Virus genome (UHGV): UHGV-0179803
DNA from: a virus
Reading direction: 5' to 3' (one strand)
Length of the DNA stretch: 64,000 bases
Both the position numbers and the translations under genes were made by a program. The notes under the pieces were generated by a model that saw only the letters and a list, made by a program, of their open reading frames with translations, did no database searches and had not been told where the DNA came from. Each line of letters opens with the position of its first letter. Within the stretch, counting starts at the first letter, position 1. This document shows, in pieces, positions 2,342 to 26,323 of the stretch.

Positions 2342-5300
2342 ATGGCAGATGTGAAACTTGTCAGGATTGAGTCCTTGCCTGTAACCACAGAAGTCAACAA
2401 AGAAGAAGACTTTCTGATCGTTCAGCAACCAGACCTCACCCGCAGAACTTCAGTGAAAGATCTGATGGCAGGTGATCCGACTCTCTCCCACGTTGTTAAC
2501 TTCCATGACGGTGGCACCTTGAATGGTCCGATGGACTTCTGCTACTACGAGGAAGAAGATTTATACTTACGCTGGACAGGGGGATTCCCGCATACTGTAC
2601 CTTCATTATCAAGCCCATACGAAGATGGTGACATAACCGATGGTGCATGGGCAGTTTACACTGACCCGTCTTTACGTGACGAGTTAGGTTCCACAATCGG
2701 TGCTTCCCTGGTGTTGACTGAAGATGGTAGAACCATCCAGGATACTATGGATGAAGCTATTGATGCTGCTTTTGAAGCTGTACGTGTGCTGAATGGCCTG
2801 AGCTTTGAAAGAGTGACTGTTGTATCGGATGCTAACTACCTCGAAGGCTATGCAGGCCACATCGTAATGGATGAAAAAGCAACGGTTCATTTCCCTGACG
2901 TTGCAAGAGGTGAAGGCACCTTGAACGGTTTTGTATCGAAAGTTGTGGAAACAGACACTTCTAACGTGTACGAAGCTATTATGCAGGGTGGCACAACTGG
3001 GGCGATCTACACCATCCGTGTTTCTGAAGAAGAACACAAAGCGGTATGCCACAGACATGCATTGAAATCTGAATTGAGTCGTTATGACCAAACCAATCCG
3101 ACTCGCACAGTAATCAAAGCTGGCGATGATGCTAACGCATCCTACTTACAACTTGATGCAACTGGTCGTTGGGGTGTATGGAATCCTTCCATAACCAACT
3201 GGCAACCGTTAGCTATGGAACAAGGTGGTACAGGGGTTCGTGATGCTGCTACGTTCCGTCGTAACTTCGCAGTATTTCACAGATCTCATACTGCACTGGA
3301 AGCTGATTTCAATATCAATAACCTGAAAGGTAATGATGCTGGTGTTTACTATCAGCCTATGTCAGCTCTTGCTACTACTGCTAACGGTTATCCTTGCCAA
3401 CAGGCAGGTGTATTGATTGTATTACAGAACAATGCTAACGGAGGAGATGGTTGCCGTCAGGAATATCATCCGTTCAATACTGAGGATACCTACTATTCTC
3501 GCTGGTACAATGCGGGTGAAAAAACATGGCAAGCGTGGGTAACCTGGGCAAGACCCGTGAACACTAACAGCTTCCGTGAGCGGATAGGGATTGGTGCAGG
3601 TAACTCCCCTAGCTTTAGTAATCTGTATTTGAGAGCTGTAACAGACGACAAAGGTGCTTCTGGTATCCTGAATGGTACTAAATATAAAGCAGATGGTACG
3701 ACAGAAGAGCACGGTTTCCGTATTTACTCTGAAGTCCGCAAGGATAATAAAACTTGGTTAACCTTCCACCTGAAAACAGGTCCAGAAGGTAATCAACTTC
3801 ACAAATACCTCGGCTTAAGCGAAGATGGTAATTTTGAAGTTCCGAACAATATTGCTTGTAATACTTTCGCAGTACGTGATCTGAATACAACCCGTAATAC
3901 TTTACAGGTTAACAGATTTGTACAGGCAGGTTCTGAAACTGCCGTCAACAACCCAACAAACACTGCTAAACTGATCATCACAGAGGGTAAACTTTGGGGT
4001 GCTTACGATATTGCCAACAGTTCTTACATCCCGCTGGCAATAGGCCAGGGTGGTACAGGCGCAAGAGATGCAAATACAGCCTGGGCCAATCTAGGTGGTA
4101 AGGCTCTGGGTAAACTTGACAGCATTGCATTGACCGATAATAAGATCACTGGTGTGCTGCCTGTGTCTAAAGGTGGTACAGGTGCTACAAACGTTAACGG
4201 CATTAAGAGCAGCTTAGGTGTTAACCGTTTAGTCAACTCAAGTGCAGAACGCACCATTGTACAGTCTACGGATGTACAAGGTGACGGCTGCTATCTGCAA
4301 GTCGATAAAGGTGGTCAATGGGGCTGCTTCAACCCAGTAGCTGGTAACTGGCAGGCTTTATCTATTGCTCAAGGCGGTACTGGGGCCAAAGACGCAGCCA
4401 CTGCATGGACCAATTTAGGTGGTCGTGCACTAGGTAAAATGGATTCTATCGGCTTAACCGATGGTAAAATTACAGGTGTACTCCCAGTAAGCAAAGGTGG
4501 TACTGGTTGCGTATCTGATACGGAAGTTAAAGCATGGTTAGAACGCATAGGTATCTCCGGCGGCGGTGAAGGTGGTGGCAGTACAGGTACAGGCGGTTCT
4601 GCTGTAAACACGACACCTTTCGTAATTCAGAAACCTGATGGTGCGGAAGATGGTAAATATTACCCTGTCATTATTAATACATCTGAGGTAAACGCTTCAA
4701 TTGGTACAGACCTCCTTGTTAGTACCAGATCCTCGGTAGGCACTGATCCTATGAACTGTTCTACCTTGAGATGCTGGTATCGTACTGGCGGTTGGACAGA
4801 TAGAGGTGATTCTGCCTATGGTATGATCTCCTTCTACCAGAGTGAAGTGTCCATTTTAGGTTTGCTTGTTCCTACTCGTGGTCAGACAAACTATGCCGCT
4901 ATTTATGTGCATGAAAAAGCGTTCCCTATCTACGTTTATGCAAGTGCTGCGGTGACAGATGTTTGTGCCTATGCTGAAGACTTTGTAGCCAGTACTCCTA
5001 CAGATGGTCGAGATGGGGTTGTGTATAAAGCGGGTATTACAGATATCCACGAAGCAATTTTGGGTGATAATATAACCAACACTCGTCCACTTTTTGACTT
5101 TACTGGTGGTGTAAGCGGGTTCTACTGCAACCAATGGATGTACCGTGGCACCAAAGACAAATGGTTCTTGCAGAACAAAACAGAGATGGGTGAAACCGAA
5201 CTCTGGTATAATGGTCTGAAATACATCTGCCCAGGTAGCCAGACAGCCCGTAAAGCTCTGGAATCTAACGCAGGTTTCATGACGAAATCTGAGGGTACGG

Positions 5301-7012
5301 AAGATTTAATCAACGCCACGTTTACCTCTAAATGCGGTAACTTAGGTCAGGCTGAATTCCGTGCAACAAACAGTGCTGGTCAGATCATTGTTCGTGATAT
5401 GGCAGGTACTGCTCATAAATTCTGGAACTTTAATCCTGACGGCACTTTTAACTCACCTAGCGGTTTTGTTTGTCAGACAGGTGGTGACTGGAACAACCAG
5501 TTCGGGAACAATAACCCATGTAAAGTAATGGCTGGTAGCGCCAACGGGCCTGAAGGTTCGATGGTTGTCGGTGGGCTGTCTGTATCATTCTCTGGAAACT
5601 ATGCTTTCCAGATGGCTGGTCGCCTTGATCAGTTGTATACCAGATCCATTGAAGCTGGTAACCATAGAGCATGGAATAGGGTCTTAACTCACAAAGGTGT
5701 AGGACTTGACACTACAGACCTGGACGCTTATGATGGTACTCGTGAGGGTATTTACCACCAACAAAAAGATGCCGAATGTACATCTGGAAGGCATTACCCA
5801 GCACCATACGCTGGTACTCTAATTGTTTACCAGAACAATGCAAACAATACGAAAGGCTGCGTACAGGAGTACATCACACGTTTTGGTGACAGATATACTC
5901 GTGTTGGTAACATGGATAGAACTGGGTCCACTTTTATGTGGGAAGTTTGGCGGCATGATTCTGGTAAAGCTATCCAGCTACGCCCGAATCGTAATGTTGA
6001 TGAAACAGACAAAGAGTTGCTCATTCATGTTGGTGGTTCTGACAATCCCAGCAACAACACTAGCTTACCTGCTAATAACGCTAGACTGTTCTATTGGGGT
6101 AACGGTAATGATCGTAAGAACGTTCTGGAATTACAAATCGCAGGTACTGATGATGCCGAGCAGGGTATTTCTAATTGGGTATTCCATTGTGGTACTTTAG
6201 ATGATAACTTGCATAAATACTTCTCAGTAAACGGTAACATTAATGGTCAAACCATTACAGCAAGTAAGTTCATGACTACGGACGGTACTGACCTCGCTGC
6301 TGGAGCAGGTGTTCCAGTCGGTGTTCCGCTACCGTGGCCTACTGACACAGCACCTGACGGTTATGTTATCATGGCTGGGCAGGAATTTGATAAAGCTGCT
6401 TACCCCCAATTGGCTGCTGCGTATCCGAGTGGGGTTCTCCCTGACATGCGTGGTCAGACCATTAAAGGTAAACCAGCCACTGGTCGTACTGTTCTGTCAA
6501 CCGAAGCTGACGGTGTGAAATCCCACACCCACGGTGCAAGTTCCAACAGTGTGGATCTTGGTACTAAAACTACCTCTGGGTTTGACTATGGTAGTAAAGA
6601 CACCAGTGAGAGCGGTTGGCACGGTCACGGCCTCAGTGGTAGTGTTGCTTCTGGTGGTGCTCACCAACACGTAAGATCTGGTCCCCGCACGATAGGTAGT
6701 TTTGCTGACGATGTTTTTGCAGACGGGTATACTCTTGAAAGTGCAAACGCCTATGGTAAACTCACCCAGTATGGGTCAGGTACAGCTGCAACAAAAGTAG
6801 CCAAAACATCTAACGATGGTGCCCACAGTCACACCATGAGTGGTGCTTCTATCAGCGGAGCTGGGAATCACACCCACACAGTGGGTATTGGTTCACACAG
6901 CCATACGGTAGGTATTGGTGCTCACAGCCACACAATCACAGTTAATAGCACGGGTAACACGGAAAACACTGTTAAAAACGTGGCATTTAACTACATTGTG
7001 CGTTTAGCGTAA
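2342..7012 (+). CDS. Long tail fibre protein (1556 aa) with phage-fibre GGTG repeats and C-terminal His-x-His array
   Basis: RBS AGGAG upstream of ATG 2342. Repeated QGGTGA(R/K)DAxTAxxNLGG and KGGTG segments resemble the phage tail fibre repeat family. C-terminus carries [33 protein letters not shown], resembling the iron-coordinating HxH needle of T4 gp37-type fibres. Followed directly by a Tfa chaperone gene. Confidence 0.8.
4036..4520 (+). repeat. Internal tandem duplication within the long tail fibre gene (two ~55-aa units about 80% identical)
   Basis: Translated units [52 protein letters not shown] and [52 protein letters not shown]. Coordinates approximate. Confidence 0.6.
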
Positions 7013-7095
7013 CAGAAAGGAGAGGATTGCATGAGAACGTTAATCCTCTCTGCTGTTGCAGAGATTAACAAATGCTTCAATCATGAGGGTTAATT

Positions 7096-7551
7096 ATGGC
7101 TTTTGAAATGTCAGATGAAATGCAAGTTGTTCACGTTTACAATGTGACAAATGACACATTTGCCTTCGTGGACGAAGCAGATGTACAAATTCCACCACAC
7201 ACTGGGTTGCCTGCACTGTGCACAACAATTGCTCCACCAGATGTAATCCCTGAAGGCCAGATGGCAATCTTTGATTTTGAGTTGGAAGAGTGGACTCTGG
7301 TGGATTATTTTGATGAAGCAATGGAAGCTGCAATTATGCCTCTGTCTTTGGAAATGGAAGAACCGGAGATTGCAGAGCCAAGCGCAGAACAATTAATGAT
7401 TGCAGAGCAGGAAGCTAAGCTGATTGAAGCACAGAACAGGATTGCTGAGCTGGAAGAACAAGTGGCGAGTTTGCAACGTGTGAACGACCTTGAGAAAAAT
7501 CTTGAGGAGCTTACTCGTATGGTTGAAAAACTGCGTAACAAGGAAGAATAA
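7096..7551 (+). CDS. tfa: Tail fibre assembly chaperone (lambda Tfa family)
   Basis: N-terminus MAFEMSDEMQVVHVYNV..VQIPPHTGLPALCTTIAPPDVIPEG closely matches the conserved N-terminal domain of lambda Tfa (..YIPPHTGLPANSTDIAPPD..). C-terminal half is coiled-coil. Immediately downstream of the fibre gene. Confidence 0.8.
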   Translation: MAFEMSDEMQVVHVYNVTNDTFAFVDEADVQIPPHTGLPALCTTIAPPDVIPEGQMAIFDFELEEWTLVDYFDEAMEAAIMPLSLEMEEPEIAEPSAEQLMIAEQEAKLIEAQNRIAELEEQVASLQRVNDLEKNLEELTRMVEKLRNKEE

Positions 7552-7576
7552 AATTTAAGTTTCTCCTGATACATTA

Positions 7577-7598
7577 CCCCGCTTCGGCGGGGTTTTTT
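7577..7598 (+). terminator. Rho-independent terminator (CCCCGC-TTCG-GCGGGG hairpin + T6)
   Basis: GC hairpin with UUCG tetraloop followed by TTTTTT, directly after the tfa stop. Confidence 0.7.
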
Positions 7599-7608
7599 GT
7601 ATCTGTAA

Positions 7609-7637
7609 TTGACTATTTCGCTGTTTTTTGGTAAAAT
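7609..7637 (+). promoter_or_regulatory. Sigma70-type promoter (TTGACT, 17 bp spacer, TG-n-TAAAAT)
   Basis: -35 TTGACT at 7609-7614, -10 TAAAAT at 7632-7637 with TG at 7629-7630. Downstream gene starts at 7672. Confidence 0.6.
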
Positions 7638-7671: not shown

Positions 7672-9162
7672 ATGGCTAAATATGGTTTAACAGATGCTGG
7701 GTTTATATTGCCCACGCTCAACGACTTGATCGTTGAAACTAAGCAGAGCTTGATCAGGGCGTTTGGGGATGATTTCAACGTCCAGAGTAACTCGGTTGCT
7801 GACAAGCTCACCACAATTTTTAACGAACGTGAATACCAGTTAATCCTCATGATGGCTGCTGTATACGCCTCCCAGACACTGTATGGGGCAGAAGGCATCT
7901 ACCTTGATGAATTACTGGGCAGACAAGGTGTTTATCGTAGAGGGCGTACCAAGGCTTCTGGTCAGTGCCAGTTGACGATTAACAATACTGTCCCCTACAA
8001 CATGATTTACGACACAGAAACTTACAGCATTGATAGTGGTAACTTCAAACTTGCAAGTAATGTACAGGTAGCAGGCAACATAATTGCTCATAAGATAACA
8101 GCACCGGATCTCAGAATTGGTAAATACACATTCCAGATGACCAACCAGGTTGATGGCACTATCTTTACCAAAACCATGATTCTTACTGATAAGGCACTGG
8201 ATTCAACAGACCTTGTTAGTTTCTACGGCGAAATCAAGCAATTTATTGTTGACAACTCCACTCTTTTGAACGAAGATCTGATTCAGGTTGACATGACCAC
8301 AGGTACATTGTGGATCGGCTACGATGCTACCCTTGAGCGTGTGGGTCTGAACAGTAAAGTTGACTTTCGTGTATCTCCGATTGTGGGCGAACGCGCTGTA
8401 GTGATGGAAGTGATTGCTGCTGAAGCAGGTGCTCTGTCGCGTGAAGCAAATACGGTGACTACAATCTCCCCAACACCGAGTGGTTTCATCTCCCTCACTA
8501 ACAGAGAGATGTTTAACGAAGGTACTAATGTGGAGACTGATGCAGAGTATCGTCTAAGAGCTACAGGAACAAACGCTGTAACCTCTAAAGCTACTCGTCC
8601 GGCGATCCTGAGTGCAGTTCAAAATGTGGCAGGTGTAAGTAGGGTAAGGGTATTTGCCAACAATACAGACAAGACCAACAGCCTTGGCATCCCGCCCTAT
8701 AAATTCCAGGTGGTTGTATTTGGTGGTGCCACTGCTGACATTTGCCAGGCTCTGTATGATACGATTGCCTGTACGAACAGAACCTACGGCAACCTGTTCT
8801 ACGATATCAACACCTCAGATGGTCAGGTGGAGAGGATTTACTACTCCAAAGCAAGCACCTATCGTCTGGACATCAGGGTAACATATTCAGGGGCTGCACT
8901 TTCTGCTACTGAAAAAGAATCAATTATAAATGCCATGATGTCAGTTGTTAACGGTCTTGATATTGCAGACACTCTCTACAACATCCAGCTTGTAGGTGCT
9001 GCTTCTGCCGCTGTCAGTATTGGTCGTTTTAACAAACTGAACATTCATGTGAAACCGATTGGTGCTTCAGATGAGGCTTATACAGCTAATGACATTACAG
9101 CCGCTATGTCAGAGGTGTTTGACCTTGATGAAAACAACATCACATTCCAGCAAATCATTTAA
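7672..9162 (+). CDS. Baseplate J-like protein (P2 gpJ / T4 gp6 family)
   Basis: ATG 7672 preceded by GAGAGG. The ORF-track start at 7609 lies inside the promoter, so it was rejected. N-terminus MAKYGLTDAGFILPTLNDLIVE and internal DAEYRLRATG resemble P2 gpJ (..DYRLRI..). Confidence 0.6.
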   Translation: MAKYGLTDAGFILPTLNDLIVETKQSLIRAFGDDFNVQSNSVADKLTTIFNEREYQLILMMAAVYASQTLYGAEGIYLDELLGRQGVYRRGRTKASGQCQLTINNTVPYNMIYDTETYSIDSGNFKLASNVQVAGNIIAHKITAPDLRIGKYTFQMTNQVDGTIFTKTMILTDKALDSTDLVSFYGEIKQFIVDNSTLLNEDLIQVDMTTGTLWIGYDATLERVGLNSKVDFRVSPIVGERAVVMEVIAAEAGALSREANTVTTISPTPSGFISLTNREMFNEGTNVETDAEYRLRATGTNAVTSKATRPAILSAVQNVAGVSRVRVFANNTDKTNSLGIPPYKFQVVVFGGATADICQALYDTIACTNRTYGNLFYDINTSDGQVERIYYSKASTYRLDIRVTYSGAALSATEKESIINAMMSVVNGLDIADTLYNIQLVGAASAAVSIGRFNKLNIHVKPIGASDEAYTANDITAAMSEVFDLDENNITFQQII

Positions 9163-11952: not shown

Positions 11953-12993
11953 ATGGCTAAACCTAGTTTTCCTCTGGAGATATGGGCAGCGGAGGATCAA
12001 ATCCTCCCCAACTCCCATAAACAGAACAAGATGCGCCCCATTGACGACCTCTGGAGAAAAGGTTGGGATAAAGGGCAGAAACCATCGTGTGAAGAACTGA
12101 ACTATCTCCTGAACATGATGGCTACCTGGGCTAAATACATTTCTGAAGATCAGATCCCGTCTATGGAAGGACGTTATCTTATTAAGGACAACAACCTGAG
12201 TGATCTTCTGAATGTAGAGATTGCCCGTAAAAACCTTGGCATTGTTACCCAGGCTGAGACTGACGCTCGTTACGTTAAGATCACTGGTGACACAATGACA
12301 GGCCCTCTGGGGTTGCAACGTATTAATTTTGCGGCAGCGGAAACAGATGCGGCATGGATAGAAACCACAATCAGCCCAGATAAAACCTTGTTGGACTTCT
12401 GTCTGATGGATAACGTTGGTTCATTTGACGATGGTGGTACTTCCACAGTTGATGCTTTCCGTTGGAGATTCCAGCCTACACAACCAGATATCAACCCAGA
12501 GTTTACACTGATGCACCTGAATGCTATCTCTGTTAACCGTGCACTTCTCAAAGTCATCGGTAACATTGAAGCACAAGATAACGTGCGTTCCAACACAGTC
12601 ACCATCACTGGTACAGCTTCCTTCGGTAACGTCAGCGTATCGAGCCAGTTGACCACAGGTAGCTTCTATGCTAACGGTGGTTCCAACGTTGATAACATGA
12701 CAGTCCGTAGCCAGTATTGTGTGGTTGGTGGTCGCCATGTAGTTCGTTCAGTCAACGGTGTGAACGCAGATGGTAATGGTAACCTGACTATCAGTATCCC
12801 AGCTTCAGGCGTTCAGGATATTCGCTGCGGCGGTATGTTGATCGATGGGGTTTCTGATAACAGGGTACGTCCGGGTTATGTTATGAGAGGATGGGCTAAT
12901 GGTAATAAAAAAGAACTCCGTGGTGCAGGTTACTGGGCAGCTCCGCTACAGAAACTTGTTAACGGACAGTGGATTACCGTTCAGACATTATAA
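11953..12993 (+). CDS. Short tail fibre / receptor-binding protein, paralog A
   Basis: RBS AGGAG. N-terminus (MAKPSFPLEIWAAEDQ..) and C-terminus (..GGMLIDG..RGAGYWAAPLQKLVNGQWITVQTL) are nearly identical to the 14032..15096 paralog; the centre is divergent. Confidence 0.7.
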   Translation: MAKPSFPLEIWAAEDQILPNSHKQNKMRPIDDLWRKGWDKGQKPSCEELNYLLNMMATWAKYISEDQIPSMEGRYLIKDNNLSDLLNVEIARKNLGIVTQAETDARYVKITGDTMTGPLGLQRINFAAAETDAAWIETTISPDKTLLDFCLMDNVGSFDDGGTSTVDAFRWRFQPTQPDINPEFTLMHLNAISVNRALLKVIGNIEAQDNVRSNTVTITGTASFGNVSVSSQLTTGSFYANGGSNVDNMTVRSQYCVVGGRHVVRSVNGVNADGNGNLTISIPASGVQDIRCGGMLIDGVSDNRVRPGYVMRGWANGNKKELRGAGYWAAPLQKLVNGQWITVQTL

Positions 12994-13009
12994 TTGAGGG
13001 TTATAGATT

Positions 13010-13627
13010 ATGATTAAAATAGCTACAGGTTTTGAGTTGTATGATCCGCAAGAGCCTCGCCCAGAGGTGTTGGCTCTTGATGAAGATCAGCCACAAACCT
13101 TGGAATTAACAGAGCAGGAGATTGAAGATTACGCTCGCTATTCTGCTTACTTCCTTCGCAACGAGCACGGTGACTGGTATGCCCAGACCCGAGAATTACA
13201 GCAGATTGCCCAGGAATCTGGAGTAGAATACCTGTTTGCAGTCATAGAAGCTGATGGTTTACTGAAAATTGTAACCACGGACCCAACAGGTATTTTCCCC
13301 AGCAACGGTCTTCAAGTCCTGCATGGTAAACGAGAGGAGTTCCCGGAAGACATTGAAAACATGATCAATGCCTACCGCTGGAATGGTGAGAAATTTGTTG
13401 TTGATAACAAACCTTACATCGATGCTGCACAACAGGTTGTCGAAGAAGAGTTGCAATGGGCTACAGCAAGGCTTGGAGCTTTCAGCGACATGCTGGACTT
13501 GGATTATATACTCTCTCCTGCACAGGAGCAGTTTGTTAAGGAATTAAAACTTTACAGGATTCATCTACTGGAGATTGATATAAACAAAGCCCCCAACATA
13601 CATATCCCTGATCGCCCAGCCCTCTAA
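13010..13627 (+). CDS. Tail fibre assembly protein-like (Tfa C-terminal-domain-like)
   Basis: C-terminus ..VKELKLYRIHLLEIDINKAPNIHIPDRPAL resembles the conserved C-terminal Tfa motif (..W.KYR..LNRVDTSTAPDIEWP..). Lies right after fibre paralog A. Confidence 0.5.
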   Translation: MIKIATGFELYDPQEPRPEVLALDEDQPQTLELTEQEIEDYARYSAYFLRNEHGDWYAQTRELQQIAQESGVEYLFAVIEADGLLKIVTTDPTGIFPSNGLQVLHGKREEFPEDIENMINAYRWNGEKFVVDNKPYIDAAQQVVEEELQWATARLGAFSDMLDLDYILSPAQEQFVKELKLYRIHLLEIDINKAPNIHIPDRPAL

Positions 13628-13636
13628 GGAGGTAAT

Positions 13637-13951
13637 GTGGAACTGGACTTTGGTACGCTTTTTGAGATAATCATGAGCGCTATTGTCCCTATAGGTGTCT
13701 GGATTTTTGGTCAGTGGCACGTAAAATGGAAAGCCGTCTCTAAAAGATTGGATGATTTAGAGAAGGACCTTATTTTGGTGAAAAGCAATATGGTTACGAA
13801 AGACAGACTTGACGCGGTGCTAAATCAGCGTCTTAAAGATATTCAAGATAACCTTGACGAACTAAGGAAAGAGGTCAAAGGTGACGTTAATGGATTGCGT
13901 AGTGATATTCAACAAATTATCCAGATTCTTCTCAGTAACAAGGAGAAATAA
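13637..13951 (+). CDS. Small protein with N-terminal transmembrane helix and coiled-coil tail
   Basis: GTG start 5 nt after AGGAGG. Hydrophobic segment IIMSAIVPIGVWIFGQW followed by heptad-like charged repeats. Confidence 0.45.
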   Translation: MELDFGTLFEIIMSAIVPIGVWIFGQWHVKWKAVSKRLDDLEKDLILVKSNMVTKDRLDAVLNQRLKDIQDNLDELRKEVKGDVNGLRSDIQQIIQILLSNKEK

Positions 13952-14031
13952 CCTGCGGCAAGGAAGCCTCTGGTTGCATTTTGAGGAGTTTAGTGCTAAA
14001 ATAATGTCAAGAATTTTAGTCAGGAGAAAAC

Positions 14032-15096
14032 ATGCCAAAACCAACTTATCCGCTTGAGGTGTGGGCATATCAGGATGTGATGCTTGACACCACGCGAGAA
14101 TTAAATAAGGCCCAGCCTAGTAAGGAACAAAGGTTAGCTGGTTGGGACTTCAGTCAGAGAATCGCTGTTGAACATATGAATTTCGAGTTCAATATGATTA
14201 GTAACTGGCTGAAATACTTGAACGAAGAGGTTGTTCCTGGTTGGGATGATCGATTTTTAAAAGTTGCAAATAACCTAGCAGAAATACCGGATAAAGCTGC
14301 TGCAAGACAAAACTTAGGTTGCCTGACAATAGAGGAGATGGATGACCGTTATGTTCACCTAACAGGGGATACCTTGAAAGGTACTATGACTTTAGGGGTT
14401 ACAAGGATTAATTTTAAATCTGCTGATACAGACTCGTGTGCGATTTATTGTTCCACGATTGCAGATACCCCAGGGTATAAAGGTGGGGATAAAACCTATT
14501 TCGATTTTCGTATGGCAGACAACTACGGTACAGATGACATTGAGGCATCTTACTATACAGGCACAGAAGGATTCCGCTACAGATTCCACCCCGCAGGCGG
14601 TAGCTTGTTCACATTGATGAAATTGTGTGCTATCTCTCCAAACCGTGGGAGATTGTCCGTAGTAGGTGACATTATTGCTGCTGATAACTTACGTGCTGGT
14701 TCTATGAATGGTAACACTGTTGATATCTGGAGTACAGCTTCTGTATCAAGTCAGACACTGTGTGGTAACCTCTATACCAACAGTTTTAACTGCGATAGCC
14801 ACACAACCCGTAGTAATTACCATGTTGTAGGTGGAAGACATGTTTGCAGGTCAGTAAACGGTGCCACAGCGGATGGTAACGGCAACTTAACATTAACACT
14901 ACCTCAACCCGCTATCTCTGATGTTCGTTGTGGAGGTATGCTGATAGATGGCACAGGTGATAACCGCGTAAGGGCTGGCTACGTAATGCGTGGTTGGCAG
15001 AATGGTAATAAGAAACAATTGCGTGGCGCTGGCTATTGGGCAGCTCCACTCCAGAAACTGGTAAATGGTCAATGGATCACAGTACAGACATTGTAA
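14032..15096 (+). CDS. Short tail fibre / receptor-binding protein, paralog B
   Basis: RBS AGGAG. Shares conserved termini with paralog A (..RGAGYWAAPLQKLVNGQWITVQTL), with a divergent central region. Confidence 0.7.
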   Translation: MPKPTYPLEVWAYQDVMLDTTRELNKAQPSKEQRLAGWDFSQRIAVEHMNFEFNMISNWLKYLNEEVVPGWDDRFLKVANNLAEIPDKAAARQNLGCLTIEEMDDRYVHLTGDTLKGTMTLGVTRINFKSADTDSCAIYCSTIADTPGYKGGDKTYFDFRMADNYGTDDIEASYYTGTEGFRYRFHPAGGSLFTLMKLCAISPNRGRLSVVGDIIAADNLRAGSMNGNTVDIWSTASVSSQTLCGNLYTNSFNCDSHTTRSNYHVVGGRHVCRSVNGATADGNGNLTLTLPQPAISDVRCGGMLIDGTGDNRVRAGYVMRGWQNGNKKQLRGAGYWAAPLQKLVNGQWITVQTL

Positions 15097-17231: not shown

Positions 17232-17278
17232 TTAATTAGCCTCTCCTGCGGGAGAGGCTTTACTGTTTGGAGAACACA

Positions 17279-20200
17279 ATGCTTCCAATTCCTCTGTTAA
17301 AACTTGCTAATTTCCATCTGGACTCGAAGGATGGGATCAAGGAACTTGCTGTTCTGTCCTACCCAATAGATAAAAGTGATGGTACTAGCAGCACAGTATC
17401 TTATGTAAACAGTCTTGCAATTCTTTATGCAGATGGTTTGCTCGTTCTGACAGGCGCTAACAAGTATGGCGAATGTGGAACAGGTAATCGCAACGAATGC
17501 ATTTACCCGAACGAGTCGATCCGCAACATCGATCATGTCTGGAGAGCAGATCGTTCTTTCGTGGTTGAAACTTTTGATCATGAATTCTTTTACATCGGCT
17601 GCACAGCGGGTCTTATTGGCTCCACAGCGGCTGGTGGTAACGATGTTTGTGTAACCCAGTGGACTGCACTACCTTCACAAATTACGACCACTCTGGGGCT
17701 TGATAAGCACCCAGAACGCTTGCTTGAAGTTTGCGGTGGGATGAACAACACTTGCTGGGTAATTGGTGCACCTGAAGGTGAAGGTATCTGGGATATCTAC
17801 GGTTCAGGCAACAACACCTACGGTTCTTTGCATGTGGATAAAAACCAACATGCCAACCCTGTTAAAATTGCTGAAACTTCTCAGGATCCTGTAACAGGGC
17901 AGTGGAAAAACCCAGCACTAAATCTGGAGGTCCACGATAACTCTGTGATCTATGGTGGCCCAGATGGCTACTGGATTGCTGGTTACGATTTCCTGCGCAA
18001 TAATAGTGAGCTTAATCTGGTTTATCCACCAGAACACGGGACATGGGCAGCTTTGACAGGCAGCAGTGAAACCTACAAATGGTTCATGTGTGGTCCGAAT
18101 GGGGCTGTAGTTGCTACAGAGCGTAATCACACAGATGGTATACCTGTGTATGTATTCCGTGGACAGAATTCCTGGGGTGATAAAACCTGGCGCCCATTGA
18201 ACCTCACCTATACCCATGAAGTGATTATTGCACAAGGTCATGCTACTAACGGCATCTTCTTTAATAACGGTACAAAACAGTACAGAGGTTTCTCTCGTAA
18301 CCTGTGTAACGATATTGGCTGGTCGTCTGCTGAAGCCAACCCTCGTGCACAGTTCCAGCACAAGCAGGCAATTGCTACAGCTGCATACGTCGAACAACGT
18401 ACACCTGTTAGTTGGGCTGAGAACGTATACTTCCAGGGCATCAACCGGGAAGGTTACTTGGGCACACTAACTGTGGTAAACGGTAAACTTTGGTGGTCCG
18501 GTATTCCTCGTGGCAGCTTCCCAGGAAGCAACAACCTGTTTGGAGGCCAACTCAATTCTCAAGGTTTTACACAGGTAGACCCGAACTGGATTAAGAACGT
18601 TCCAGTATCCAGTTTTGAGGTTGAAGAAGTTATTAGAGTCAACGGTTGGGGGACTGAGCGCCCTGTCAGTAACATTTATATTGGGGATACTGTTCAGCTC
18701 AGAATTAAAGCTCTACCAAGAGGTGCTACATGGTTTGTAGACAAAGTTGAGATCACAAATGCAGCACAAACTGTTGTAAGCGATCCTCTGTATACTGCAA
18801 CCATTAACCACAACGTGTTTGGTGTATGGGATAGTATTGTTACCCAACAGAATAAAAACGTTGATCGTCGTGGACTGTACCATGTTAAAATCACCTACCA
18901 TGATAAAAATGGTACTCACACACATCTAACCAGAAACATCAACTGGAACACGATTGTACCTGTGATCCCTTCGGATAGTACATGGTACACTCAAGGTCTG
19001 AGCCGCTCTTTGTCTTTGGGCAGCACAACCTATTTGGGTCTGGATACTGCACAACCTGCAACTGAAAATGCTGACGCTTTTAAAATCAGATTACACAGGA
19101 AAGATGCAGGCTCTGTGACCTATGATGTGACACAAGAACTTTACAACCAACGCCGTGAAATGTATAACTTCCTGGTCACTCATCAGGCACTGTGGGAATA
19201 CAACCCGAACGGTGCTGGTGGTAAAATGTATCAGGCCAACGAACAGAACGGGACTTCTCTGAACATCCACTCAGATAAAAACCCGTGGGCTACGCCTGAA
19301 AGACCTCCTAGCTGGGCACGTACTCTGAAAGTTGTCAGCTACGACGCAGGTTTCTTTGGTTTGCGTTGGGAATCAACAATTGAATACTATGATGGTACTC
19401 ACCAGAACATCGGGTTAACCCTTGGTGGGGATTCTGCCAGCACTTCACGTAAGATTGTCCGTACGCCACGCGGTGTGGATATCTCTGTTGATCTTGTTAA
19501 GAACAGTTATGGGGATATTCAGGCGCATGTAACACCTGCTGAGGCTGCGAATAATATATCTTATAATATTGCGGCATTCAAAGAGGATCCTCGCGTTGTT
19601 GGTGCGCACGATGCCGACTGGTATTACACCATTACACCCACTGCTGATACTACCAACTTCATGTTAGGTATGAAACGTGACATGCAGAAAAAACTAGGTG
19701 TTACTGACCTGTGCTACGTTTGCATTAAAGATACCCGTGTTAAAGATACGGATCCTGAAGCAAAATGGTTTACCGTTGACCCGAATACCATACGTAGTGA
19801 TAAGTTTGTTAACGAATATATCCTGTGCGCTGGCGGTACTAACCTGAACTTGTTCTGGAGTGAAAACGCTGATAAATATTGTAGTTATGATTACTTACGT
19901 GATTATTGCTGTAACCAGTGGTTTACCAACGGCAACGGCTATGTGCCTCGCCAATGCCAGACACTGCCAGCCATCTTCACAGATAACCAGACATTTTTGC
20001 TGAAACAGGCTAATGAAGTTCAGGTTGATAAAAACGGGTATGATGGAACCAAATGGTTCTTTAACTGCTATGCTCAGTATTATTGGGGTCCTGGGGAGCT
20101 TCTCAGTGATGCAGGTTGCAATCTGATGGATAAAGAAATAGGCTCATGGACTCATATGAACCAAACCTGCAACTTTATTCCACAGAACGCAACATCTGAG

Positions 20201-23086
20201 GGGTCTTCAGTTCTGGATGCTTACATCAGGATTGAAAAAGTTCACGATCCACGCGGCGATCAACCTGCCACTACTATGGCAGTACCAATGACGGCGGGAT
20301 TCCAGCAAGTAAAACTGGTTGTTAGTTGTGATCAGATAGGTAAAAATGTACCTACAGGTAATGTTGAAGGCATCGCACCTTACGTTATTGATTGCTACTA
20401 CAATATTAATAGCTTGGGGTATAAAGAGGCTCAGAAAATCACCAGCACTGATACATCAAAATGCAGACGCATTCTGTTAGGTGCGGGTTGGTGGCTATAT
20501 GAGTTTGACTTCAGCACAGTTGCGGATTGGGCAACTGACAGTGGGAACACATTGAGCGGTATTCGTTTCGACTTTGGTCAAAATATGCTACCAGAGGCTA
20601 TTAACGGTGACTATGGTGACCCTGTTGTTCATGTCAAACAGGTAATGCTGGAGAAAACTGATCAATCAGAGGTTTATGGTAAGCAACTCCAATTGATCAA
20701 AGATTGGTATGAAGCTGAAACTTCCCGTATCTCTAAAACCCGAGGGGTAGTTCTGGATGCTGGCACAGAGGATATGTTGGTTAATACTGTGTGGCCTAAT
20801 CTGGATGATACTCCTCTTGAAAACGCTGCACGTTCTATTAACTGGTTCAACTTCCACAGAGCTATGTGGTCAGTTAACATCTTTATCTGGAAGCTGTTTA
20901 ATGACAGAACCGAATCCTTTGGTTCTGGTCTACGTGTGGCTCCGATCTGTTGGACCTCTTTGATGCGTTGCTATGACAACCAATGGGAGATTGGTGGTCG
21001 CGAGTGGCAGAATATGAGGACAAGGGTTTATTCTCAGTTTGCAGTTAAACCTGTAAACTCCTATAACTCTGGTACTTCTCGTATTCTGTTCCAGGAAGGT
21101 TCAGAGTCCTATAAAGTGGAAGGTTACAGTGGGTCAATGATTGAATGGGGTACTAAACTTCTTGCCCGTGAAACTCTTGCAAAAGAGATTTGTCAGGCAA
21201 TAGGCGGGGACCTTATTCAAAAACAGATTCCTCGTTGGTTCACCTTACCGTGCTGGAATAAAACCTCAGCTAACACGTATGTAAATACGAACGCAGATGG
21301 AGATTTGTTCCTGTACTTTGAAGATATGTCACAGTACACAAACTGGACACCTGGTAACATTCATTTACAGGTATGGAACAGCGAAGGTTCTCTGGTTTAC
21401 ACCACAACCAACACTGCAAATACCAACTTCTGTGCGATCCCGAAAGCAAGATTGGAACAATATTTCGGTACAGCACGCCCTGATCCGGTCACACTATCTA
21501 TGATGGTTTATGACCAAACTTCTGGTGCTTTTGGTCCAAGGGTTGCACAGGTATATCAGAACATTGAGTATATAAAACGGATCCAGCATATGGATGTTAG
21601 AACAGGATGTGAACTGTCTCCAGACAGTAATAAGAAATGGTGGGGTATGCCTAACACTAGTTGGATTGCGGATGAGTATATATTGATTTACCCGAAAAAA
21701 GCCCTGGATGGTGCAATAATTACTGCAAACTCTGCTTACAGCAACCTTGCTGAGTTTGTAGTAAGAAAAGACCTTGCATACACCTATCCGACACCGGGTG
21801 ATGGTACAATACCTGGCGCAGACGCTACACTTGGTGCATGGTGTGTCCCTGTCGAAGTTCACTGGACTGACGAGACAGGCCAGCAATCTGCGGGTACTGT
21901 CTTGACAGCTATAGTAGAGGCTTCTGATGAAACTGGTACTCTAAGAGATAACATGGTAGGCCCTTACACTAAAGGTGCCCTGGCAATATCCCCGAGGGTA
22001 ACGGCGAAAACAGGTGGCGTATCCATATATGGATTCAGCAACTCTGATAGTTGGGCTTTAATGGATAATAGACACACATGGGCCGCTGGTTCAAGCGTGA
22101 CCTATGAGTTCTTGCTGAAAGGCTTCTATTCACCGACGAATGCTTATCAGGAACGTGGTACTTATCCTTATACCCAGTCTGGTACGCAGAAAGGCTTCTA
22201 TGTTACGGACAACTATATACCTGGTGGTGCAGCAAGCCTGGATTTCGAGGTCACCTCAAGCGACCCGACAGTCTTCGTTGCTACGAAACTAACTGACCGT
22301 AAATTCGCTATCAATGCTGTGAAAAATGGTTCAGCGGTTATCACAATTACAGCTACAGTTTCTTACGGCGAAGGTTCTTATACCTTCAGTAAACTCTATA
22401 ACTGGAAATGCGGTTCCGGCACCGTGATTACAGGATTGAGCGATCTGCCTAACCCGTTCAATGGGATTGGTATCAAAGGCGGCGGTGGTGTTATGCGTAA
22501 ACCAACTCTGCAACCTAGCGGCGCAGTCCCTGCTTCAGAGTCCTGGTCAACGAATAACCCAGATGCCGTTACGATCACACCCGATACAGGTCAGGTTAAA
22601 TTTGTTGAGGTAGGTACAGCTGTTATCACATACTCCTGTACTGACATTTATGGTGCAGTCTTCACGAAGACGACCACAATTGCGGTTAAAGAGCTTCACC
22701 CGCAATACAGGGCATGGGTAGGTAACCCAACTGACGGAGCTTATCCACAACCTTATGGTACAAGCCTTATGGAGTCGTTCTCGACTCAACCGTGTAACTA
22801 TCAGACATTGGTAAGTTACCCTATGAGAGTTTTTGGTGGTATGTATATCCCAGAGCTTAAAGGTGTACCAGCAGGCCAGCTAACGATTTACACAGGTGAC
22901 CCAGCAAGATTAGCCAACTTCGGTTATTCTTCTCCTACGGTTGCATTGAGTGAGTCAGGTTGGTGTGGTTATGAACTCAATTGGGACCACATGGAAAACG
23001 GTAAAACTTATATGGAATTTGCTGTGGCTGTGCAGGGAATCTCCCAGAACGCTTGCCGTGCGGGATTTAATATCAGGGAAGCGTAA
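17279..23086 (+). CDS. Very large structural protein (about 1935 aa) with two C-terminal Big_2-type Ig-like domains
   Basis: ATG 17279 after GGAG. C-terminal segments ..VTSSDPTVFVATKLTDRKFAINAVKNGSAVITITATV.. and ..NNPDAVTITPDTGQVKFVEVGTAVITYSCTD.. fit the bacterial Ig-like group 2 pattern. Confidence 0.7.
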   Translation: MLPIPLLKLANFHLDSKDGIKELAVLSYPIDKSDGTSSTVSYVNSLAILYADGLLVLTGANKYGECGTGNRNECIYPNESIRNIDHVWRADRSFVVETFDHEFFYIGCTAGLIGSTAAGGNDVCVTQWTALPSQITTTLGLDKHPERLLEVCGGMNNTCWVIGAPEGEGIWDIYGSGNNTYGSLHVDKNQHANPVKIAETSQDPVTGQWKNPALNLEVHDNSVIYGGPDGYWIAGYDFLRNNSELNLVYPPEHGTWAALTGSSETYKWFMCGPNGAVVATERNHTDGIPVYVFRGQNSWGDKTWRPLNLTYTHEVIIAQGHATNGIFFNNGTKQYRGFSRNLCNDIGWSSAEANPRAQFQHKQAIATAAYVEQRTPVSWAENVYFQGINREGYLGTLTVVNGKLWWSGIPRGSFPGSNNLFGGQLNSQGFTQVDPNWIKNVPVSSFEVEEVIRVNGWGTERPVSNIYIGDTVQLRIKALPRGATWFVDKVEITNAAQTVVSDPLYTATINHNVFGVWDSIVTQQNKNVDRRGLYHVKITYHDKNGTHTHLTRNINWNTIVPVIPSDSTWYTQGLSRSLSLGSTTYLGLDTAQPATENADAFKIRLHRKDAGSVTYDVTQELYNQRREMYNFLVTHQALWEYNPNGAGGKMYQANEQNGTSLNIHSDKNPWATPERPPSWARTLKVVSYDAGFFGLRWESTIEYYDGTHQNIGLTLGGDSASTSRKIVRTPRGVDISVDLVKNSYGDIQAHVTPAEAANNISYNIAAFKEDPRVVGAHDADWYYTITPTADTTNFMLGMKRDMQKKLGVTDLCYVCIKDTRVKDTDPEAKWFTVDPNTIRSDKFVNEYILCAGGTNLNLFWSENADKYCSYDYLRDYCCNQWFTNGNGYVPRQCQTLPAIFTDNQTFLLKQANEVQVDKNGYDGTKWFFNCYAQYYWGPGELLSDAGCNLMDKEIGSWTHMNQTCNFIPQNATSEGSSVLDAYIRIEKVHDPRGDQPATTMAVPMTAGFQQVKLVVSCDQIGKNVPTGNVEGIAPYVIDCYYNINSLGYKEAQKITSTDTSKCRRILLGAGWWLYEFDFSTVADWATDSGNTLSGIRFDFGQNMLPEAINGDYGDPVVHVKQVMLEKTDQSEVYGKQLQLIKDWYEAETSRISKTRGVVLDAGTEDMLVNTVWPNLDDTPLENAARSINWFNFHRAMWSVNIFIWKLFNDRTESFGSGLRVAPICWTSLMRCYDNQWEIGGREWQNMRTRVYSQFAVKPVNSYNSGTSRILFQEGSESYKVEGYSGSMIEWGTKLLARETLAKEICQAIGGDLIQKQIPRWFTLPCWNKTSANTYVNTNADGDLFLYFEDMSQYTNWTPGNIHLQVWNSEGSLVYTTTNTANTNFCAIPKARLEQYFGTARPDPVTLSMMVYDQTSGAFGPRVAQVYQNIEYIKRIQHMDVRTGCELSPDSNKKWWGMPNTSWIADEYILIYPKKALDGAIITANSAYSNLAEFVVRKDLAYTYPTPGDGTIPGADATLGAWCVPVEVHWTDETGQQSAGTVLTAIVEASDETGTLRDNMVGPYTKGALAISPRVTAKTGGVSIYGFSNSDSWALMDNRHTWAAGSSVTYEFLLKGFYSPTNAYQERGTYPYTQSGTQKGFYVTDNYIPGGAASLDFEVTSSDPTVFVATKLTDRKFAINAVKNGSAVITITATVSYGEGSYTFSKLYNWKCGSGTVITGLSDLPNPFNGIGIKGGGGVMRKPTLQPSGAVPASESWSTNNPDAVTITPDTGQVKFVEVGTAVITYSCTDIYGAVFTKTTTIAVKELHPQYRAWVGNPTDGAYPQPYGTSLMESFSTQPCNYQTLVSYPMRVFGGMYIPELKGVPAGQLTIYTGDPARLANFGYSSPTVALSESGWCGYELNWDHMENGKTYMEFAVAVQGISQNACRAGFNIREA

Positions 23087-26079: not shown

Positions 26080-26155
26080 TGGCGGCCCCTACTGGACTTG
26101 AACCAGCAACCAAGCGATTATGAGTCACCCGCTCTACCTGTTGAGCTAAAGGGCC
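26080..26155 (-). tRNA. tRNA with anticodon CAU (Met elongator/initiator, or Ile2 if lysidine-modified)
   Basis: Hand-folded cloverleaf: acceptor GGCCCUU/AGGGGCC, D-stem GCUC/GAGC, anticodon loop CUCAUAA, T-arm GGUUCAAGUCC, encoded CCA end. Confidence 0.7.
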
Positions 26156-26156
26156 G

Positions 26157-26232
26157 TGGTGCTGATGGAGGGACTCGAACCCACAACCTTTTGATTACAA
26201 ATCAATTGCACTACCGTTTGTGCTACATCAGC
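26157..26232 (-). tRNA. tRNA-Thr (anticodon UGU), tentative
   Basis: Acceptor GCUGAUG/CAUCAGC, discriminator A, encoded CCA, anticodon loop UUUGUAA, T-loop UUCGAGU. One mismatch each in the anticodon and T stems, so identity needs confirmation. Confidence 0.55.
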
Positions 26233-26248
26233 AAACTGCTTATGATAG

Positions 26249-26323
26249 TGGTATTCGGAGCGGGAGTCGAACCCGCATCTACAGCTTAGGAGGCCGCTAT
26301 TCTATCCGTTGAACTATCCGAAC
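26249..26323 (-). tRNA. tRNA-Arg (anticodon CCU, reads AGG)
   Basis: Acceptor GUUCGGA/UCCGAAU, anticodon loop CUCCUAA, perfect T-arm GCGGG-UUCGACU-CCCGC, encoded CCA. Confidence 0.65.

Follow-up and report, generated by a model that had tools for sequence, protein, structure and literature searches.

In the 64,000-nucleotide stretch of the virus genome UHGV-0179803 analysed here (the whole stretch is called the window hereafter), a lateral tail fibre gene is followed on the same strand by a gene for a short protein of 151 amino acid residues (aa), which starts 83 nucleotides (nt) after the fibre stop codon (Table 1). Both open reading frames (ORFs) are those given in a preliminary description of this DNA. 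The fibre, of 1556 aa, has an exact match in nr under the record title 'MAG TPA: tail fiber protein [Caudoviricetes sp.]' and another on a 139.5-kb ENA metagenome contig, and it matches the PHROG tail-fibre families phrog_6578 (E 1.5e-275) and phrog_295 (E 3e-107). We consider it quite probable that the two genes encode a trimeric fibre with an rV5-type body and a T4/lambda-type needle tip, together with a short Tfa-like protein that would assist its folding, and that tip and chaperone form an exchanged cassette.

Table 1 Features of the fibre and chaperone locus. Positions are nucleotides of the window, with residues of the encoded protein in brackets.
Feature	Position	Strand	Remarks
Lateral tail fibre gene	2342..7012	+	ORF, 1556 aa; exact match to GenBank DAM57100.1
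N-terminal anchor domain, Tail_spike_N (PF18668)	2495..2653 (aa 52-104)	+	Pfam E 1e-09
First QGGTG junction (aa 295) and knob-like k1 (aa ~306-545)	3143..3976	+	
Shaft repeat unit B	3968..4216 (aa 543-625)	+	Core aa 564-616 = nt 4031-4189; QGGTG and KGGTG
Shaft repeat unit C	4292..4540 (aa 651-733)	+	Core aa 672-724 = nt 4355-4513
Gly-rich spacer, module junction	4559..4600 (aa 740-753)	+	DNA homology to L012 breaks at nt 4552
Conserved middle body	4622..5701 (aa 761-1120)	+	Common to rV5 and JEP1
Distal knob k2	5702..6265 (aa 1121-1308)	+	Last domain in common with rV5-type fibres
Collar domain, N-terminal part	6305..6520 (aa 1322-1393)	+	Corresponds to T4 gp37 D10 residues 811-881
Needle stem, outward half	6521..6670 (aa 1394-1443)	+	HxH motifs 1-3
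Hypervariable tip subdomain	6671..6811 (aa ~1444-1490)	+	Aligned to T4 932-959
Needle stem, return half	6812..6958 (aa 1491-1539)	+	HxH motifs 4-7
Collar C-terminal strand	6959..7009 (aa 1540-1556)	+	Entropy ~0, near-invariant
Spacer with two predicted RNA hairpins	7009..7095	+	Minimum free energy -31 kcal/mol, z -4.4
Short Tfa-like chaperone gene	7096..7551	+	ORF, 151 aa
Chaperone N-domain, lambda-Tfa type	7096-7305 (aa 1-70)	+	
Chaperone acidic linker	aa 71-96	+	
Chaperone long C-terminal helix	7384-7545 (aa 97-150)	+	
Terminator-like hairpin and T-run	7576..7599 (stem-loop 7576-7593)	+	ACCCCGC-TTCG-GCGGGGT

The needle tip

The first 1308 residues of the fibre share 48-55% identity with the lateral tail fibres of Vequintavirus (rV5, JEP1, Murica and BASEL isolates). 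In an alignment with the fibres of rV5, JEP1 and Bas59, homology ends at about aa 1308, and past this point the window fibre continues with a Collar domain and a His-x-His (HxH) array instead of a Peptidase_S74 domain. Our comparison set for DNA and protein consisted of 50,697 phage records, and no single place in any of them covers the fibre query beyond aa 1308.

The preliminary description had likened the C-terminus to the needle of T4 gp37-type fibres, and a homology search bears this out: the last 251 aa, compared by phmmer with all PDB sequences, match 2XGF (T4 gp37 785-1026) at E 1.2e-70, with query residues 17-251 aligned to chain residues 27-242, end to end and with all HxH motifs in register. 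The Pfam model Collar (PF07484) matches aa 1327-1374 at E 6e-11 and 42.6 bits (cut-off 24). Identity of the tip amounts to 68% with gp37 of TuIb, a T-even phage, and to 60% with the lambda Stf C-terminus. The C-terminal collar strand is nearly identical in both, and at least 80% of the tip is covered in 419 phage records, mainly of T-even phages. On these comparisons the C-terminus is a true homologue of the collar and needle tip of T4 gp37.

The HxH array is real and richer than previously listed, with seven motifs in the last 170 aa rather than four: SHTHG 1395, WHGHG 1427, AHQHV 1441, AHSHT 1495, NHTHT 1510, SHSHT 1519 and AHSHT 1528. Shuffling of this His-rich tail gave a mean of 1.06 motifs and a maximum of 5 in 2000 shuffles. 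In the T4 gp37 tip the histidines of such motifs reportedly hold iron, and by analogy the motifs of the window fibre may bind metal as well. In T4 gp37 the collar comprises residues 811-881 and 1010-1026, the stem residues 882-931 and 960-1009, and the receptor-binding tip residues 932-959 (PMC6957217). The corresponding segments of the window fibre are aa 1322-1393 and 1540-1556 for the collar, aa 1394-1443 and 1491-1539 for the stem, and aa ~1444-1490 for the tip subdomain.

A search of 5.8 billion proteins for relatives of the fibre yielded more than 100 clusters with the Tail_spike_N and Collar architecture, at 72-87% identity and on contigs of 120-145 kb. Across 103 relatives each of the 14 HxH histidines is at least 98% conserved, and column entropy amounts to 1.5-2.1 bits at aa 1449-1488 vs 0-0.9 in the collar and stems. 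This profile is what would be expected of a conserved scaffold with a diversifying receptor-binding pole, and the tip subdomain is presumed, by analogy with T4, to be the receptor-binding site. One relative departs from the scheme: in P0104 (L013, 4001-7384) an in-frame deletion removes the complete needle (FDYG to HSHTITV), so that the collar is joined to the collar strand, and the locus keeps the 151-aa chaperone gene despite the deletion. P0104 could represent a fibre that is defective or has a minimal tip, or it could stem from an error of assembly.

The 151-aa protein

In tblastn the downstream protein aligns with lambda Tfa over aa 1-148 at 37.6% identity (E 3e-14; pairwise E 9e-22). Its aa 1-70 share about 50% identity with many tail-fibre assembly proteins of P2-like and lambdoid phages, and PHROG tail-fibre-assembly families match aa 1-69 (E 4e-15); the match of the N-terminus to gp38 of TuIb is weaker (33% identity, pairwise E 2e-5). 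The precomputed annotation PF28596 (Caudo_TAP_N) is marked 'weak' for the 151-aa protein and is unmarked for its relatives. In a HMMER scan of 1.84 billion representative proteins, homologues of aa 1-70 are mostly 190-200 aa long, and the sampled ones carry Caudo_TAP. In the alignment, the C-terminal W..YR..LNRVD..WP motif of Tfa does not occur in the 151-aa protein. Its previous placement in the Tfa family holds for aa 1-70, which are homologous to lambda Tfa, but not for the C-terminal half, where both the Caudo_TAP domain and the WP motif are lacking. A similar layout of N-domain and helix is found in P0199, an unrelated protein of 110 aa.

The AlphaFold2 model combines a four-strand beta domain, for which the predicted local distance difference test (pLDDT) exceeds 90, with an acidic linker that is disordered and a helix of 54 residues; pLDDT is 82 for the full length and 91 for the N-domain alone. 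The predicted N-domain has no significant structure match in the PDB, and the fold of the Mu Tfa N-domain (PDB 5YVQ) was not recovered. We had considered the helix as a remnant of the C-terminal helix of a displaced S74 domain, an idea prompted by the resemblance of RIAELEEQVASLQ to KITALEEQVKKLT. It was dropped because homology could not be demonstrated: BLASTP without composition correction gave 24% over 78 aa, and hhalign a probability of 2.7%. The Smith-Waterman score of the two helices is reached by 0.3% of composition-preserving shuffles, a type of shuffle that flatters coiled coils. Among PHROG families no significant match for aa 88-151 pointed to a helix like that of gp57A (the best was unannotated, E 0.003), T4 gp57A itself not being compared directly.

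That lambda Tfa can substitute for T4 gp38 is said to be a classical result. Tfa proteins are described as consisting of a variable N-domain that binds the fibre and a conserved helical domain for trimerisation (PMC9608196). The 151-aa protein fits this functional plan, yet by sequence it is only a partial member of the family. Its chaperone activity and mode of action, as well as the role of its helix, are presumed by analogy with such proteins.

Exchange of tip and chaperone

The preliminary description had taken the mosaic structure of the fibre to imply modular exchange of its tip. The relatives agree with this, carrying three different tip/chaperone cassettes, and Vequintavirus fibres with the same body end in Peptidase_S74. 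In the window, in L008-L011 and in L013, the gp37-type tip is followed by the 151-aa gene and then by a gene for a 496-aa baseplate protein; the 151-aa gene is present in all six loci with a gp37 tip, and the copies in L008-L011 are 94-97% identical. At L012 the fibre has 912 aa, its last GGTG unit running straight into a different collar tip without HxH motifs, and the next gene encodes a 200-aa protein with both Caudo_TAP_N and Caudo_TAP. At L005 a body 74-93% identical to that of the window ends in an S74 terminus (PF13884, E 3.8e-16), and the baseplate gene follows directly, with no chaperone gene in between.

At the DNA level the edges of the cassette are sharp. They lie at nt 5760 (start of k2) and nt 7577 (start of the terminator-like hairpin) in the comparison with L005, where k2 was exchanged along with the tip, and at nt 4552 (Gly spacer) and nt 7519 in the comparison with L012. 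The flanking DNA is 87-92% identical to that of relatives on both sides. Since three tip/chaperone alternatives occupy the same locus, tip and chaperone are exchanged together, as one cassette. The end of the chaperone ORF (window 7519-7551, about 30 nt) has about 95% identity with a non-coding stretch that follows the canonical Tfa gene at L012 (7367-7400), which hints that the L012 cassette replaced a window-like one.

The fibre body

The anchor domain has PDB sequence matches to the N-termini of tail fibres (9occ_G, 9lna_A and 9d84_A) and is presumed to attach the fibre to a branched fibre or a baseplate adaptor. Both the GGTG repeats and the Gly-rich spacer noted earlier are present. There are five GGTG motifs (aa 295, 570, 611, 678 and 719), where composition-preserving shuffles contain 0.26 on average. 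The internal duplication is also real, but it is smaller and older than implied (cores in Table 1), and its description as recent does not hold. Between the cores of units B and C, identity is 77% at the protein level and 65% at the DNA level but falls to 38% at third codon positions, which are near saturation; the wider 83-aa units are 57% identical, and blastn aligns the two at 69.6% identity over 138 nt. Unit C is 94% identical to its counterpart in the relative P0002 vs 77% to its paralogue in the same gene, and both unit types recur across the clade. Because both units have counterparts in relatives, the duplication predates the diversification of the clade, and units B and C are old paralogues.

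Members of the clade vary in how many GGTG-bounded modules they contain and of which kind. Their fibres range from 1015 to 1713 aa in length, apart from that of P0108 with its different collar tip, which has only 912 aa. A third unit is present in most members (1620 aa, six GGTG motifs), and some possess a single unit (about 1449 aa). The k1 region is missing or replaced in relatives of 1160-1370 aa: members have lost it through a junction of the GGTG at 295 with a later GGTG, and in P0103 and P0079 the GGTG at 295 is fused directly to the repeat unit. The segment of about 170 aa that holds units B and C and the Gly spacer is not present in aligned rV5-type fibres, and the spacer differs in length among relatives.

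Identity in the middle body is 60-67% to Vequintavirus fibres and 76-88% within the clade. The following knob, k2, occurs in relatives as two divergent alleles, 76-91% vs 50-63% identical to that of the window, and this split is independent of the variation of the needle tip. It suggests that k2 is a second exchangeable module, possibly one that contacts a receptor.

Intergenic elements and neighbouring genes

In the predicted fold of the spacer between the two genes, the second hairpin covers the Shine-Dalgarno sequence GAGG of the chaperone gene and could possibly limit its translation, a function we infer from the fold. The spacer is near-identical in five relatives and hence offers no covariation signal. 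The strong terminator-like hairpin closes the unit of fibre and chaperone and lies just where the swapped cassette ends on its right side. After it, and before the 496-aa baseplate gene, lies a promoter-like TTGACT-17-TAAAAT with an extended TG (within 7576-7637); in the gene calls of the source contig the baseplate gene starts at 7672 rather than at the TTG of position 7609.

The baseplate protein reaches 80% identity to Vequintavirinae proteins, and the upstream genes, coding for a Tail_spike_N protein of 222 aa and a tail protein of 862 aa, show synteny with rV5. Given the similarity of fibre body and baseplate protein and this upstream synteny, the source phage is an uncultivated Vequintavirinae-like myovirus, a relative of coliphage rV5, with a likely enterobacterial host. 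When the locus together with 22 kb of its flanks was compared by megablast with the 50,697 phage records, the sole match was to JEP1 (870 nt, 82%), and no recent DNA donor of the tip was identified among them.

The ORF at 183-2306 is only the 3' part of the 862-aa tail protein gene, which starts about 280 nt before the window; its product belongs to phrog_2871, and its homologue in rV5 is the 'lateral tail fiber protein with glycosidase domains'. Two paralogous short-tail-fibre genes, both phrog_4465 (346 aa at 11953-12993 and 354 aa at 14032-15096), enclose a gene for a 205-aa tail-fibre assembly protein (13010-13627, phrog_136/105). The region 11953-15096 is a second set of fibre and chaperone genes and fits the Mu GpS/GpU-like short-fibre locus described for Vequintavirinae (PMC8594841). 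The 1939-aa ORF at 17267-23086 (phrog_15684), with an Ig-like domain match near aa 1737-1822, probably encodes another large lateral fibre protein typical of rV5-like phages. Three tRNA genes (Met-CAT, Thr-TGT and Arg-CCT) are clustered at 26080-26323 on the minus strand, within a block of minus-strand genes where the GC skew is reversed (about 24-32 kb).

Discussion

In the reading that we prefer, the fibre would be a trimer with a Tail_spike_N anchor, GGTG-bounded shaft modules and two knob-like domains, and it would end distally in a collar domain and a needle running out and back. The seven HxH motifs of each chain would stack in the trimer to form seven octahedral metal sites (Fe2+ in T4), and at the far pole the hypervariable subdomain, about 47 aa long, would bind the host receptor. 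To judge from T4, TuIb and lambda Stf, the latter may be an outer-membrane porin and/or the core of lipopolysaccharide (LPS). The 151-aa product would aid folding and trimerisation of the tip from its C-terminal end, with the lambda-Tfa-type N-domain contacting a conserved part of the tip and the long C-terminal helix supplying oligomerisation in place of Caudo_TAP. The cassette, whose left edge falls at shaft or knob junctions and whose right edge is the terminator, has been exchanged against the self-cleaving intramolecular chaperone S74, and against a collar tip with a canonical Tfa. This reading builds on homology, a conservation pattern, cassette boundaries and the co-variation of tip and chaperone, all of which are observed directly; the receptor class would follow by analogy.

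Several points weigh against it. The Pfam model Caudo_TAP (PF02413) finds no match in the 151-aa protein even at E <=10, while the controls score E 1.5e-43 for lambda Tfa (aa 72-191) and E 2.9e-31 for the L012 chaperone, and aa 71-151 have no homologue outside the cluster of the clade among the 1.84 billion representative proteins. Metal occupancy, the trimeric state and the need for a chaperone are extrapolated from T4 and lambda. Furthermore, the exchange of k2 alleles means that the needle tip may not be the only determinant of specificity, and the source is a metagenome assembly.

The last two points open the way to other explanations. Because the fibre sequence comes from a metagenome-assembled contig, the chimera could in principle be an artefact joining an rV5-like phage to T-even or lambda-like phages. 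This we regard as hardly credible: more than 100 distinct clusters at 90% identity, on independent contigs of 120-145 kb from several sources, have the same junction and architecture, the gene order recurs on four IMG/VR contigs, and the reading frame is intact between flanks that resemble those of relatives on both sides. The k2 alleles bear on a different possibility, namely that specificity resides mainly in k2 or other body domains and that the uncleaved needle is chiefly a nucleus of folding and trimerisation which replaced S74. Cleavage of S74 fibres leaves the domain in front of the cut as the mature tip, k2 is retained in the window fibre, and it occurs as two divergent alleles among relatives and was exchanged along with the tip relative to L005. 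However, within the C-terminal 240 aa variability is strongest precisely at the site by which T4 binds OmpC and LPS, and hypervariability at the pole is not what one would expect of a purely structural cap, which makes a mainly structural needle improbable.

Another question is whether the 151-aa protein leaves the fibre after assembly. It might instead stay on the mature tip and contribute to or modulate receptor binding, as reported for the Tfa proteins of Mu and Ur-lambda, which occur in mature phages (PMC9608196); its long predicted helix could form a stable trimeric cap, and the protein is always co-inherited with the gp37-type tip. We consider this unlikely, albeit somewhat less so than a mainly structural needle. 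The protein is 86-97% identical in the clade, far above the hypervariable tip subdomain, a degree of conservation that does not resemble an adhesin shaped by diversifying selection. T4 gp38 assists a tip of this type and is not found in virions, and the hairpin that buries the ribosome-binding site of the gene gives a weak hint of lower expression.

Within the preferred reading, in which the protein acts as an assembly chaperone, the lack of Caudo_TAP in this short protein suggests that the domain is dispensable for a gp37-type tip. A bolder proposal is that the 151-aa protein represents a distinct minimal class of chaperones, in which a tip-binding N-domain of the lambda/T4-gp38 type is combined with a lineage-specific trimerising coiled coil replacing Caudo_TAP. 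We advance this tentatively, as an idea that is more doubtful than likely. If true, one and the same fibre body would be served interchangeably by a short Tfa, a canonical Tfa or S74, a fibre chaperone would need only a tip-specific binder and any trimerising helix, and the clade would be a natural test set.

Much of this has precedents. Needle tips of the gp37/Stf type on unrelated phages have been described (PMC6957217, PMC9608196 and PMC12143355 among the sources), and the gp38/Tfa helpers, the alternative between needle and S74 and the horizontal exchange of fibre tips are already known. What is new, judging from the sequence comparisons, is a T4-type tip on a Vequintavirinae-type fibre, along with a shortened variant of the chaperone and a clean three-way variation of the cassette within one clade. 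The locus is thus a clear but ordinary case of host-recognition module swapping and leaves the view of phage fibres unchanged. It may be of more use in engineering: the more than 100 natural variants, with one HxH scaffold and differing tip subdomains, form a library for altering the host range of rV5-like broad-host-range phages, and the natural breakpoints (GGTG motifs, Gly spacer, start of k2 and terminator) could guide the design of chimeric fibres.

Among known systems, T4 gp37 and its TuIb counterpart resemble the distal part of the window fibre in the collar, the needle, the variable tip subdomain and the identical C-terminal strand, as well as in the small chaperone gene directly downstream, whereas the remainder of the window fibre is unrelated to gp37. 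The tip subdomain has about 47 aa in the window fibre and in TuIb vs 28 aa in T4, and between the first two it is only about 38% identical, judged by eye from the alignment. Compared with gp38 of T4 and TuIb, the window chaperone is shorter and has a different C-terminal half. The lambda Stf/Tfa pair has the same gene order, and the N-terminal 70 aa or so of Tfa are the closest named match of the window protein; lambda Tfa, however, is a protein of 194 aa with Caudo_TAP, while the window protein has neither this domain nor the WP motif. HxH motifs number eight in lambda and TuIb and seven in the window fibre and T4.

The Vequintavirus fibres (rV5, JEP1 and BASEL Bas59), of about 1270 aa, have the anchor, the knobs and the middle body in common with the window fibre, and the upstream neighbours, tail proteins of 222 aa and about 862 aa, are shared too. 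The rV5-type fibre ends in Peptidase_S74, continuing with SSDRDLKDNI (E 6e-11 in rV5; precomputed PF13884 for JEP1), whereas the window fibre has no PF13884. The rV5 locus also differs in having no Tfa gene; a 196-aa 'tail assembly protein' downstream in rV5 was considered as a Tfa and rejected, being a member of the distal-tail-protein family. Likewise, the S74 version within the clade is followed by no separate adhesin or chaperone gene. The T-even fibres offer a parallel to the variation itself, as they occur with a T4-type gp37 needle or with an S16/T2-type gp37 carrying an S74 domain (PMC12143355). The same two alternative C-terminal solutions are thus found on otherwise homologous fibres in both groups, but those of the window clade are borne by a Vequintavirinae-type body and occur within one uncultivated clade.

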